Shown here in pieces: positions 4,997 to 61,568 of a stretch of DNA of 64,000 nt. Position 1 is the first letter of the stretch, and each line of letters begins with the position of its first letter. The notes beneath the pieces were generated by a model that made no database searches, had not been told where the DNA came from, and saw only the letters and a program-made list of their open reading frames with translations. The position numbers were made by a program, and so were the translations under genes. This DNA comes from Eledone cirrhosa (lineage: Eukaryota): assembly GCA_964016885.1 (NCBI GenBank), contig OZ024741.1:111166001-111230000 (forward strand). Direction: 5' to 3'.

Positions 4997-5177
4997 ATAA
5001 AAAAATAAACCAAAGGAGCCTTCAATACATCAAAAGTCTTTATTAGCCAACAATGTTTTGTCCTATTAAGTGCTTCTTGTAGCTTTACTTGCCCTGATGA
5101 GTCCTTAATAGGACGAAACATTGTTGGCTAATAAAGACTTTTGATGTATTGAAGGCTTCTTTGGTTTATTTTTTTAT
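4997..5177. repeat. inverted repeat, about 74-bp arms (4997-5070 / 5104-5177)
   Basis: aaaccaaaggagccttcaatacatcaaaagtctttattagccaacaatg is the reverse complement of cattgttggctaataaagacttttgatgtattgaaggcttctttggttt (one mismatch). Confidence 0.9.
5091..5128 (+). ncRNA. minimal type-I hammerhead ribozyme motif
   Basis: GCC-CTGATGA-GTCCT taat AGGAC-GAAA-C att G-TT-GGC: intact core, 5-bp stem II, stem I GCC/GGC, GUU triplet, followed by AATAAA. Confidence 0.8.
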
Positions 5178-6021
5178 ATATTTAGAAAAGGGTATAAATG
5201 CCCATAGCAGACCTAGAGCACTCAACAAGTTCATGGAGCAAAAGATCAATAAAAATATTCATCAAATCACTATATATAATGATGCACATACATACACCCT
5301 AATACAATTATACATATACACACACACACACACAAAAATATATACATACACACACACACACACACAAAAAAAACCCAACCACAGAAATACAAACACACAT
5401 ACAAAAACGTATATATACACATATATATATATATATATATATATATATATACACACACACATAGGAAGAAGCCTGACCCTACGGCAGAGCTCAAGCCTTT
5501 TCTGAGGCTATATATATATATATATATATAGTCATGTAATAAACAACATAAGGCAATTATTCCATTTACCAGTGGTTTCTTAAAAGCCAAAAAATTTGCC
5601 TTCAATCATCAGAATGAAAAAATCCTGGTCTATCCATATATATACACATACACACACATATACATACACATACACATACATACACATACATTATGGTATG
5701 TGAAGGGTAAGGCAAAAAAATAGGGGGAAAAGGTTAAATATAAGGGGAGATAAGGGAGAAAGAGAATACAAGAGTACAGAACGTGGATTCAGCAGGTAAA
5801 AAAACTGTAGTAGGAGTAAAGAGCAGAGAAGGATATATATATATGTAAAAGGTAAACAGAAATAACAACACATATATGTATATATATAACAAATTTAATA
5901 TAGAAATGGCTTCGACAGGACTAGAACTAGAACTATTAAATTTGTTGTATACATTCTACTAATGTATTGAGTACCTTACTTACTGTGGTTACCCCGATAT
6001 TGTGTAACACGGGACTCACAT

Positions 6022-6685
6022 ATCATCATCATCATCGTTTAACGTCCATGTTCCACGCTTGCATGGGTTTGGACGGGAGTTTTCCCACTTGAGGCAAGAG
6101 TGGTTGTCTTGCTCGCATAGGACTGTCTGGCGGGTTTTCTACGGCTGGATCCCCTTCCTAACACCAACCACATTTACAGTGTGGGGCTGGGAGGTTTTTA
6201 CCGTGTTGCCTACACGGCCACATTACAGCGTGGACTGTGTGTTTTTTTGTCGTGACACTTACACGATCTCATTTGTTTCGGCCTGGATGTTGTGGCACCA
6301 ACATAGCTTTACAATGAAAGGGGCGGTGTGGATGGGGTGGAGGTGGTGTGACGGGGCGTATTTTGTTAGAGATGCCTACTGACTGTAGTAGGTTTACTTT
6401 GTATTTAGGCAAGGCGGGTCTTCTCTATTACTGAATACCGCCAGAGATCTCGGTCCAGTGACATTGTCTTGGAGAGGTGTAAGTGTGTGAGGTCGGAATT
6501 TATCAGGTCGTCCCAGGTTTTTCTGGGTCTGCCTACTCCGTGGCTACCGTCTATCTTTATTGCCCTGCACTTTTTTATACAGCTGTCGTCTTTCATGCGC
6601 ATCACGTGACCATACCAACGTAGCCTTCTCTCGAGTAAACAACATCTGATCTCTCTTATTTCTAATTTTTCCCTTAGTTCGTTTA
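6022..6685 (-). mobile_element. RTE LINE 3' fragment (ORF end, 3' UTR, (ATG)n tail)
   Basis: MRMKDDSCIKKCRAIKIDGSHGVGRPRKTWDD matches the copy at 248-1800. Confidence 0.9.
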
Positions 6686-7200
6686 TATATATATATATTT
6701 ATATATCATACTTAAACGAAGCTGTTGAATAGGACCAATACACCTTCAGTCCTTTTCCCATTCACTGAGTAATTTAATTTAGTCAGTATCATTAAGACAC
6801 CAACCCAAGGAAATTAGAGTGGACACTTATACATTAAACAGTGAGAAAAACGATTTTGGGTGCGTAGAAAATTTGATTTTCCTGCCCTGGACCAATGCAT
6901 TAGTTTCTGTGACTACATCTGTTAACAGCAGTCCAAATGGAACTACTGTGTACAGAAATTACGTAATGTTATTAAGCATTACATAATTAACTATGAAGTT
7001 GCGTCATTAGACCCTCTGAAACAAGTCAGCTATCAAAACACTACTCTGATGTACCTCGGCCATTGCTGTAGTAAACTCGACTTTCAGTGTCACGTCATTT
7101 GACACCGAACAGGAGGTAAGCTAGTTCTGACTATTCACAGAGGACTGACTGGCATATGTTCAAATTGAAAAAATGAAAACGGTTCATGAAGCACTCAACC

Positions 7201-58398: not shown

Positions 58399-59148
58399 TA
58401 ATTTTGAGATAGAGCGCCCGTGATGTTTGCTCTAATATGATCAGTTTTGGAAATTCTACCTGTTTTATGTGAAAAAAGTGGCTCCAGAGGTATTAAAATA
58501 AGTTTCGCGCCAATTCGTGTTGCAAAAATTCTTGTGGTCAAAACAATTCTGATTGGTCGGTAGAGGTCACGTGAATGTTAAAAATTGATTTTGCGCCAAA
58601 TGTAGGTTTATCGAAGAGTGTCCTTTTTCGCCTGATTGAGAAGTCACTGAAAAATAAGTCTTTTAAGACAAATATGTGTGTGTGTGTAGTAAAGAGGTTC
58701 ATTGTTGTGATAATGGTCAATAGGGATGTGTGTGTGAATTGCAGTCATGTTGAAAAGTCAACAGTTCAGGTGCCTATTAAGACAAATATGTGTGTGTGTA
58801 GCAGAGTAATTCGTGGTAGAGGGATCGGTCAGTAGGAATGTGTCTGTATGTGTGTGGGGGATATTTTAACATGTTGAAAGATATTTTTCAGCTCTTGTCT
58901 TATACGGAGAAGTGTGTGTGTGTGTGTGTATGTCTCTTTGTATGTTAGTGTATGTGTGTGTGTATATATATATGTGTGTGTATGTGTGTGTGTGTGTGTG
59001 GACCAGTATTTTTGTGATACTGGTAAAAATGGTGTACATTATTCGATATTTTCACCAAAAACGATTCTCTCAAGAGAACATCAAAAACATTAATAATAAA
59101 AGGGGGGAAATGATATATAGTATTGTCATAATACCAAGGTGTGTGTGA

Positions 59149-60711
59149 GTGTCCAAATTAAGACCTATAATAGCAGGCCCCGCTTGCGAAACCCACCGCC
59201 TTAGCAACTTCATAGATACCCTTCTCAAGCCTTTTCTCAAACACATCAAAAGCTATATAAGGGACGACCTAGATATGCTCAATCACCTTCCTAATATGCC
59301 CCTTTCTGAACAAACCCTACTAGTGACGTTCGATGTAGTCAACCTATACTCCAACATCCCCCACAACCTAGGAATAGAAGCTATCCAATTCTGGCTGGAT
59401 AATTACCACAATGAACTCCCACAACGCATCAAAAAAGAATTCGTGATAGAGGGACTCAAATTTATCTTGGAGAACAATTACTTCGTTTTCAATATCAAAT
59501 CCTACAGGCAGAAATCTGGGACCGCTATGGGAACGAAAACAGCCCCTTATGCCAACCTAGTCATGGGATACCTGGAAACCACCCTCTACACTAAAGTACT
59601 AAACAAATTTGGAAACACTCTCCACTTACACATAGAAAAGAACTGCAAGCGATATCTAGATGACTCCTTCATCCTTTGGCACGAAAACATCGAGAAACTT
59701 AAAGAATTTCACACCCTCATAAATGGGCTCAACACGAATATTAACTTTACGATGGAATACAGCCATCAACAACTCCCCTTCCTCGACATCCTCATTAAGA
59801 TTCATAACAAAAAAATAGAAACAGACAGATACTACAAGCCCACAGACTCCAAGCAATATCTTCCTTTCAACTCTTGCCACCCTAGACACGTTAAAATTAA
59901 TATTCCCTACAACTTAGCCAAGAGAATCTGTACTATAGTCTCCAATAAAAACACCTGTTACTTACGGCTACAAGAACTAAAGGACACACTCATAGGCAGG
60001 GACTACCCTGCATCACTAATTGATAATGGAATTCAACGTGCCCTAAAACTCAGTACCCAGGACCTTAGACACCCTAAAGTAAATCAACCAAAACTAAAAG
60101 CTCTTCCATACATCTCCACACACAACCTCCTTAACAATGAGGCCTTTCACACCATCCTCCAGAACATCCCTGTGTTAAAAAAGGACCATAGAATGAACCA
60201 AATCTTTCGAACACACGATATCATAAAGAGCAAAAGACAATCTAAGTCAATGAAAAACATCCTAACACATGCCAAAGTACTGCCAACCACAACAACGAAA
60301 CCCACAGTAAAAACATGCGATAGACCCAACTGTGGCATATGCATCAACCTAATAGAGGGTTCGGAATTCTATTTCAAAGAAGGACAACGTTTTATAGTAA
60401 AACACAATTTCACATGCGCATCAGAAAATCTAATATATGTATTAACTTGCTCAGGTTGTCGAGAATACATAGGCCAGACCAAAAACAGCCTCCGCCAACG
60501 CATGACTGTCCATAGATCCCAAATTAAAATACGGGAATACAGGAAAATACCACTGAGTGAACACATTGATACTTGTGCCGCCCAAAATCACCCCAACTTT
60601 AGAATCTTTCTCCTCTACAAATTTAAAGATAATGCCACCCACACCCAGCGCATCAGCAAGGAATCTCACTTTATTAACAAATACGGACCCCGTCTAAACA
60701 CTTCTCCCTAA
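59149..60711 (+). CDS. PLE reverse transcriptase + GIY-YIG endonuclease, 520 aa open but N-terminally truncated
   Basis: LRPIIAGP, TFDVVNLY, GTAMGT, RYLDD, LPFLD, CDRPNCGIC, NLIYVLTCSGCREYIGQT. RT motif 1 is absent and the start codon comes from the inverted arm. Confidence 0.88.
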   Translation: MSKLRPIIAGPACETHRLSNFIDTLLKPFLKHIKSYIRDDLDMLNHLPNMPLSEQTLLVTFDVVNLYSNIPHNLGIEAIQFWLDNYHNELPQRIKKEFVIEGLKFILENNYFVFNIKSYRQKSGTAMGTKTAPYANLVMGYLETTLYTKVLNKFGNTLHLHIEKNCKRYLDDSFILWHENIEKLKEFHTLINGLNTNINFTMEYSHQQLPFLDILIKIHNKKIETDRYYKPTDSKQYLPFNSCHPRHVKINIPYNLAKRICTIVSNKNTCYLRLQELKDTLIGRDYPASLIDNGIQRALKLSTQDLRHPKVNQPKLKALPYISTHNLLNNEAFHTILQNIPVLKKDHRMNQIFRTHDIIKSKRQSKSMKNILTHAKVLPTTTTKPTVKTCDRPNCGICINLIEGSEFYFKEGQRFIVKHNFTCASENLIYVLTCSGCREYIGQTKNSLRQRMTVHRSQIKIREYRKIPLSEHIDTCAAQNHPNFRIFLLYKFKDNATHTQRISKESHFINKYGPRLNTSP

Positions 60712-61532
60712 GACGAACCCACAACATACACACGTCAACATACATACCTACATAAGCATACATCTTACATACATCTCTATCCACATATAAACACAATGAC
60801 ATACGTAAACACATGTTCTATGGTGCAACACAAATATACACAAATTTGCATACCTTTTGATATCTATAGATATAAACGTGCCGACACACACATACATATA
60901 CGCACACATGCATTGCACACTGATGGGCACATACATATTTGTACACAAGTATTCCAATACGGCAGGGCCTAATGGATTCCTCTTGCAGTACGTAAAATCT
61001 GGACACTCACACACTCACACACACCTTAGTCTTATGACAATACTATATATCATTTCACACCTTTTATTATTAAGGTTTTTGATGTTCTATTGAGAGAATC
61101 GTTTTTACTGAAAATATCGAATAATGTACACCATATTTACCTACACACACACACTTGTCTTAATAGGCACCTGAACTGTTGACCTGTCAACATGACTGCA
61201 ATTCACATGCACATCCCTACTGACCATTATCACAACAATGAACCTCTTTACTACTACTACAAACACACACACACACACACACACACACACACATATTTGT
61301 CTTAAAAGACTTATTTTTCAGTGACTTCTCAATCAGCCGAGACAAACCTACATTTGGCGCAAAATCAATTTTTAACATTCACATGACCTCTACCGACCAA
61401 TCAAAATTGTTTTGACCACAAGAATTTTTGCAACACGAATTGGCGCGAAACTTATTTTAATACATCTGGAGTCACTTTTTCCAAAACTAATCAGATTAGA
61501 GCAAACATCACGGGCGCTCTATCTCAAAATTA

Positions 61533-61568
61533 TTTTTGAAAAGCATTAGAAATGCGCAACCGGTAAAA
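61533..61568 (+). ncRNA. variant (U3-A8) hammerhead-like motif at the PLE2 3' end
   Basis: TTT-TTGAAAA-GCATT aga AATGC-GCAA-CCGG-TA-AAA: perfect stem II and palindromic ACCGGT stem III, but GCAA replaces GAAA. Confidence 0.45.

Follow-up and report, generated by a model that had tools for sequence, protein, structure and literature searches.

Seven hammerhead-shaped motifs in a 64,000-nucleotide (nt) stretch of the 3.0-Gb genome of Eledone cirrhosa (the window; contig C2, OZ024741.1, 111,166,001-111,230,000) are, with a probability that we put at roughly 0.88, minimal type-I hammerheads that lie close to the 3′ ends of copies from six abundant repeat families. Of these families, four are linked to Penelope-like elements (PLEs), and copies of the six end at TA-rich microsatellites, where the endonuclease (EN) of the element likely nicks (TA)n and the reverse transcriptase (RT) starts at one of two internal points past the ribozyme. 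The motifs mark the 3′ pseudo-long terminal repeat (pLTR) ends of these families, and all seven are present where a preliminary description of the sequence had put them. The window has 37% GC and abundant TA and CA tracts. The elements and their motifs, several with untranslated regions (UTRs) or open reading frames (ORFs), are as follows.

4894-5178 (left end approximate), no strand assigned: F5091, short 5′-truncated copy of a young Hydra-type PLE family, with a forward 3′ end and an inverted arm bearing the tail
5091-5128, plus strand: type-I minimal hammerhead of F5091, with C3-G8 core, stem II of 4 to 5 bp and near-palindromic stem III; AATAAA at 5130-5135
22901-25737, plus strand: PLE1, 5′-truncated Neptune-type PLE with a ~1.1-kb 3′ UTR and (TA)n at both ends (from Pfam and flanks)
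25628-25663, plus strand: minimal hammerhead of PLE1, U3-A8 variant with private changes in stems II and III; AATAAA at 25670-25675
25752-26749, minus strand: F25804, 5′-truncated copy of an ORF-less family of ~2-kb tandem units, plus 40 nt of inverted tail at 26710-26749
25805-25860, minus strand: minimal hammerhead of F25804, with a long stem II that has U·U at its base and a C·C loop, and an 8-nt palindrome in stem III; AATAAA at 25803-25798
39678-39806, minus strand: F39728, short 3′ fragment of an older family, with hammerhead at 39728-39785, ending at (CA)n(TA)n
42803-43713, plus strand: F43604, 3′ UTR fragment of a Hydra-type family, with hammerhead at 43604-43658 and AATAAA at 43667-43672, ending at a TA tract
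58250-61681, plus strand: PLE2, Neptune-type PLE with an inverted arm (58250-59152), a 5′-truncated open RT-EN frame (59155-60711) and a 3′ UTR
58363-58398, minus strand: hammerhead of PLE2, inverted-arm copy (U3-A8, A13C)
61533-61568, plus strand: hammerhead of PLE2, with U3-A8 core, family-fixed C13, 4-bp stem II and 6-nt palindromic stem III; no AATAAA nearby

The F5091 copy was recognized from a self-inverted match (5006-5168), a match to locus L185 and 100%-identical copies elsewhere. F25804 and PLE1 meet tail-to-tail within one TA tract, and the insertion of PLE2 splits a TG/TA microsatellite. Six genome searches returned 736 to 3,067 first-look candidates per family; for each family, 40 candidates were scored and 30 loci fetched. 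Typical family copies were cleaner than those in the window and, in five of the six families, carried the core C3-U4-G5-A6-N7-G8-A9, G12-A13-A14 and U-H (or U3-A8). In the PLE1 family, stem II has its full 4 bp and the palindrome is perfect, whereas the window copy at 25628 departs from this by two private changes; the F39728 family mostly retains G8, and the window copy carries a private G8A. An 8-nt palindrome characterizes the F43604 family, and U17 is fixed in F5091. The motif shapes in the preliminary description hold, with the qualification that 25628 and 39728 bear private mutations absent from typical copies. Its statement that only the two PLE2 arms share stem sequence was too narrow: stems elsewhere do differ, but the 25628 motif is also related to that of PLE2 (73 to 76% local identity).

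Could the motifs be chance matches in AT-rich DNA beside plentiful microsatellites? A relaxed type-I descriptor does yield ~2.5 random matches per window: it found 14 sites in the window, all seven motifs among them, whereas 100 block-wise shuffles that kept dinucleotide composition averaged 2.5 sites and gave at most 7. A strict descriptor found three (two of the seven, plus 5612) versus none in shuffles, and a third version found six versus a mean of 0.07 (60 shuffles), so that the window exceeded shuffled sequence with every descriptor used, a check that the preliminary description had named. On 200 kb of arbitrary genome, the third version gave nine matches versus 0.35 (20 shuffles), and the density in the window is thus only about twice the genome average. 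Since all descriptors were composed after the motifs had been seen and were tuned on them, genome-wide pattern counts are the better test. These are motif counts, in which inverted arms are counted twice: the exact U3-A8 pattern had 30,089 matches versus 776 reversed controls, and a C3-G8 pattern with UCA in each strand of stem II had 22,143 versus 16. Chance is already refuted by these counts, which lie 39- to 1,400-fold above controls, and each motif comes from a repeat family whose typical copy is cleaner; we give this alternative next to no weight. The sole hammerhead match in an Rfam scan of the window (HH9, 5078-5148) scored 28.5 bits, under the cut-off of 52, and no ribozyme or tRNA family was matched in loci L208, L223, and L234.

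The proposed insertion into TA microsatellites is well supported by the fetched copies, of which 150 of 171 reach a TA/CA tract, in most cases within one of two tight distance ranges particular to the family; the background for such tracts is 32% over the entire span and 2.9% in a slot of 16 nt, and this comparison is the enrichment check that had been suggested. Each family has two discrete end classes, a short end and a tailed end. Short ends mostly fall 48 to 63 nt after the predicted cut in four families, 67 to 81 nt in PLE1, and 109 to 126 nt in PLE2, with tailed ends ~39 to 147 nt beyond them. Inverted 5′-truncated arms are frequent, and at 9 of the 12 two-arm loci scored, one end is short and the other tailed. 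At locus L195, a pLTR remnant and tail continue into a 5′ UTR and ATG, forming a partial pseudo-LTR tandem, of which the F25804 tandem units are a second case. The tail, the inversion, and the (TA)n bias of PLEs have been described (PMC8557442), as have two internal RT start sites giving short and tailed ends at an AT-rich target in Poseidon PAc of Anolis, whose ribozyme is dispensable in vitro, ribozyme mutants having had no effect on insertion (PMC11167929). PAc belongs to another clade and its ribozyme overlaps the ORF start, whereas the window ribozymes sit in long noncoding UTRs. By analogy with PAc, we infer that transposition proceeds by target-primed reverse transcription: the template would be a read-through tandem transcript, priming at the short site or the tail end would produce the two end classes, and a second priming would produce the inverted arm. 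Since every insertion carries a pLTR hammerhead, the motif would recur without selection on individual copies.

Four of the six families are linked to RT/GIY-YIG coding sequence, in agreement with the earlier suggestion of several distinct PLE families. In PLE1, Pfam matches to RVT_1 and GIY-YIG place an RT before a GIY-YIG endonuclease, in a coding stretch (22907-24538) with two stops; an open 791-amino-acid (aa) frame of the same family, at L195:4830-7202, has 93% aa identity to the window copy. The PLE1 (L195) and PLE2 families share 58% aa identity, extending through the EN, and their proteins show, by eye, a Cx4CxxC linker (the clade allows Cx2-5CxxC), CCHH in the EN, and a DKG motif, which are Neptune features. 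Neptune-clade EN+ PLEs (Arkhipova 2006, via PMC8557442) likewise have RT followed by C-terminal GIY-YIG, the Cx4CxxC linker, DKG, and a pLTR hammerhead, as well as the (TA)n bias, inverted arm, and tail (PMC8557442). They differ in that the window PLE2 family combines U3-A8 with a fixed A13C and that the window PLE1 tail is ~64 nt. The linker of Neptune PLEs is also found in Nematis.

For F5091, a Hydra-type RT/EN was found in longer copies (L184-L186), and the coding sequence upstream of F5091 and F43604 has CxCx5C, CxxC, and CxH without CCHH; L186 shows all Hydra features, DKT included, and L183 shows the linker, CxxC, and CxH. DKT, CxCx5C, CxxC, and CxH define the Hydra clade, which also has a hammerhead near the 3′ end and inserts into (TA)n, and File S2 of the same paper lists an octopus Hydra family whose stem III is palindromic (PMC8557442). 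In comparison, the window families have 3′ UTRs over 1.1 to 1.5 kb and tails of ~100 nt rather than the described 30 to 40 bp, exact AATAAA beside the cut, and, in F43604 and relatives, a UCA/UCA stem II loop. Judged by these motifs, PLE1 and PLE2 appear to be Neptune-type, and F5091 and F43604 appear to be Hydra-type. Pfam analysis of 95 of 113 frames from loci L031-L150 gave no GIY-YIG match, and tblastn with Hydra-type proteins did match. RT/EN coding was not found for F25804 or F39728 in the loci examined. Further Hydra-type RT/EN remnants lie in the window at 62194-62801 (plus strand) and 12321-12557 (minus strand). F39728, F5091, and F43604 each have a pyrimidine tract ending in AG directly before stem I of the hammerhead, resembling the intron end described for Drosophila Penelope.

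The argument of the preliminary description that stems differ in sequence yet keep their pairing is upheld by covariation at positions that the search pattern left free, where modal pairs change between families and mostly remain paired. Depending on the family, A-U, C-G, G-C, or G·U occupies pair 10.2-11.2, and distal pairs alternate likewise; pair 10.1-11.1 is U·U in F25804, and comparison of PLE1 with PLE2 shows a two-sided change at a single pair in each of stems I and II. Several families, F43604 and relatives included, share a UCA/UCA (C·C) loop in stem II. Published minimal PLE hammerheads are also of type I, with a short stem I, a palindromic stem III, the U3-A8 variant, and U17 (PMC4209133); we accordingly do not regard U17 or U3-A8 as new, nor the U·U at the base of stem II, which is in PMC7229834. 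In contrast to the families here, all core-2 boxes in Fig. S3 of PMC4209133 are GAAA (as its descriptor required), A13C is not shown there, and the 3′ flank is described just as AU-rich.

A hammerhead scan of all fetched loci gave 313 matches in 25 clusters. Exact AATAAA occurred within 22 nt of H17 in 15 of the 25, versus 0.93 expected from composition-matched shuffles (16-fold), in none of the 25 in each of the next three intervals, and as the reverse complement in one; in four clusters it starts at A17, the cut nucleotide itself. Five of the six window families carry AATAAA just past the predicted cut, and the A13C (PLE2) family is without it there. The preliminary description had noted AATAAA or ATTAAA after the motif; this applies to AATAAA in those five families, while the ATTAAA of PLE2, ~65 nt from the cut, is probably there by chance. 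No mention of AATAAA or a polyadenylation signal was found by term search in the three main PLE papers. AATAAA after the cut is likely to be a pLTR poly(A) signal that would end the protein-coding mRNA. Because both RT starts lie downstream of the would-be poly(A) addition, a functional signal would separate the mRNA from the transposition template, and transposition would use read-through RNA.

Alternatively, and with a rather low likelihood in our estimation, AATAAA could be an A-rich strand whose pairing to the U-rich 5′ flank lengthens stem I, or it could serve the endonuclease/RT or a promoter as a cue. At least three hexamer bases pair with the upstream flank in 11 of the 15 AATAAA clusters, several of which have the hexamer inside stem I, and the flanks are labelled U-rich and AU-rich in Cervera's consensus. 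Yet the hexamer is unpaired in 4 of the 15 clusters, PLE1 among them, pairing is about equally strong with or without it (mean z, −1.25 versus −1.0), and it is the exact hexamer that is enriched over composition-matched shuffles. With this mixed outcome, we rejected an extended stem I occluding AATAAA as a general rule.

Several points weigh against the overall interpretation of pLTR hammerheads in PLE-type families with a signal beside the cut. The 25 clusters share ancestry and amount, by eye, to about eight lineages with AATAAA and nine without. The association is weaker in other species: among the 12 Hydra rows examined in Craig's File S2 (PMC8557442), exact AATAAA follows the cut in 1 and a variant differing by one letter in another 4, and in Cervera's Fig. 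S3 (PMC4209133) the exact hexamer does so, by eye, in 9 of 56. Clade names come from motifs and not from a tree, F39728 has no linked ORF in ~1.5 kb upstream, and two of the six window elements (39728 and 43604) are without a TA tract on the 5′ side. The hammerhead was the lowest-energy fold in none of the six motifs folded as monomers (the second PLE2 arm being identical). Stem III palindromes of the six families form self-duplexes of −2.2 to −8.3 kcal/mol, which together with the monomer folds fits the dimer or assisted model of PMC4209133; a palindromic stem III is predicted to need a dimer or protein help.

F25804 differs from the other families in that its body is preceded, ~1.7 kb upstream of the hammerhead, by a tail of the same family and another hammerhead, in a head-to-tail unit. 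Four units measured 2011, 1965, 2027, and 2211 nt, with longest frames of just 84 to 154 aa, and a unit in L218 measured 1841 nt. By eye, the tail has a short motif in common with the tails of F43604 and F39728 (the latter an older family with ~80% identity), which may point to a Hydra-type origin. With its ORF-less units, F25804 is likely nonautonomous and would likely borrow a Hydra-type enzyme. It is quite improbable, in our view, that F25804 is instead the deletion-prone 3′ UTR of an unsampled autonomous element. Such an element might be missed among the 25 loci examined around the upstream probe, of 624 candidates, and one locus (L078/L220) has a Hydra-type ORF remnant beside the element, but the other 24 loci had no PLE protein match, and the second hammerhead and short frames of the units also argue against it. 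Poly(A)-ended genomic copies gave no matches, which says little, as PLEs insert without poly(A).

The suggestion that some families are nonautonomous and retrozyme-like is therefore apt as regards the ORF-less tandem unit with one type-I hammerhead, but a unit of ~2 kb falls outside the short-unit definition of a retrozyme. Non-LTR retrozymes are likewise noncoding head-to-tail units with one type-I hammerhead each and have been proposed to be PLE derived (PMC7229834; bioRxiv 10.64898/2026.07.22.740005). Their units are 170 to 400 nt (PMC7229834) compared to 1.85 to 2.2 kb in F25804; the preprint reports 51 to 972 bp from a tandem search limited to 1,000 bp, and its supplements might list longer units. 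F25804 also differs from long arrays: its partial tandems are dispersed and show truncation, inversion, and a tail in the manner of PLEs.

The core box of PLE2 reads GCAA and not GAAA, and the family lacks the A13 of the minimal type-I hammerhead. Among 44 alignments, from loci picked by similarity to the window copy, position 13 was C in 43, T in 1, and A in none. The U3-A8 pattern with A13C had 12,733 matches genome-wide versus 42 controls, and at least three loop variants are represented. Over 202 nt, copies from different contigs are 99.5 to 100% identical, which indicates recent spread of a family with an A13C core. An alternative register built on the GAAA of the loop was dismissed on inspection, as it would have no stem II. 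Changes at A13 strongly reduce hammerhead activity, and A13C is predicted to cripple cleavage; we doubt, therefore, that this family spreads self-cleaving motifs, as had been proposed. Its massive spread suggests that spreading does not require efficient cleavage. A natural A13C hammerhead was not found in the excerpts of the hammerhead literature, although variants in Lünse et al. could lessen its novelty.

The same elements might instead depend on an essential hammerhead, with the A13C core of PLE2 still cleaving usefully as a dimer or with the PLE protein, a scenario that we think possible though on the unlikely side. Two PLE2 subfamilies differ at 9 of 151 flank positions and at none of 31 structured positions (bar a one-base insertion at the loop edge), and the Anolis PLE ribozyme cleaved only with its protein (PMC11167929). 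The difference is not significant evidence of selection on the A13C motif, since 0 of 31 arises by chance ~15% of the time at 6% divergence, and A13 lies within the invariant hammerhead consensus (PMC3088659). Divergence among PLE2 copies was similar across the motif and its surroundings, at 4.4% in the core (inflated by an A-run gap), 3.0% in stems, and 2.8% in flanks.

Adjoining one PLE2-family copy, L197:4812-8188 (G000:C19) has parvovirus/densovirus-like ORFs, capsid-like and NS-like by eye. Upstream of the hammerhead, Neptune-type pLTRs contain repeated CCAAT boxes, CACGTG, and GGCGCGAAA-like sites (window 61370-61500 and 25170-25600; L195:7900-8400), a set that we take to resemble a cell-cycle (NF-Y/E2F) promoter.

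The seven motifs are all real, but the preliminary description overlooked others of hammerhead-like form, at least four in number and all of them on the minus strand.

5563-5616, minus strand: extra hammerhead in which all three stems form (descriptor scans, folding)
3089-3142, minus strand: decayed second copy of the 5563-5616 hammerhead (descriptor scans)
16912-16954, minus strand: hammerhead-like motif within inverted repeat 16871-17097 (self-comparison, descriptor scan)
34579-34614, minus strand: motif related to that at 16912-16954, within inverted repeat 34374-34847

The two inverted repeats belong to very common families with a hammerhead-like motif and nonpalindromic loop III, many copies of which flank other loci. 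Elsewhere in the window, a LINE-type RT followed by a PHD finger occurs in several copies (8005-9645 and 63501-63968, minus strand; 239-1412, plus strand), and a 48-bp minisatellite (42507-42758 and 18100-18295) is related to the 3′ part of this RT-PHD LINE. An Rfam U3 snoRNA match at 16563-16767 (plus strand; 39.8 bits, cut-off 34) is possibly a retroposed or chance copy. The window also contains a near-perfect (98.9%) 354-nt inverted repeat (31137-31490) and Mariner-like transposase fragments and other RT fragments (29217-30118 and 55765-56594, minus strand; 53314-54303, plus strand). Outside the window, L189:4076-5215 (minus strand) is a 380-aa intronless frame, GPCR-like by eye.

The overall architecture is already published (Cervera 2014; Craig 2021; Frangieh 2024). 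The amplified A13C core, the tight hammerhead-AATAAA link, the shared C·C stem II loop, and the long tails (up to ~145 nt) were not found in the papers searched, and the new parts also include the 2-kb nonautonomous unit, which would escape tandem screens limited to 1 kb. The function of PLE hammerheads has been called unclear (PMC8557442). Speculatively, and against what we consider the odds, the pLTR hammerhead and adjacent AAUAAA could form one 3′-end switch, in which folding or cutting (splitting the hexamer at A17 in some families) would pick polyadenylated mRNA or read-through RNA with the RT starts. If so, the PLE2 lineage, with A13C and without a nearby AAUAAA yet with >12,000 motif copies, would be a natural knockout giving the role of PLE hammerheads. 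The genome holds a matched natural pair of related families of Neptune type, each with >10,000 motif matches: the U3-A8 core is intact and AATAAA lies nearby in the first, while the second has A13C and lacks AATAAA close to the motif. Many covarying families are present as well. Together with the 2-kb F25804 unit, these should make direct tests easy.

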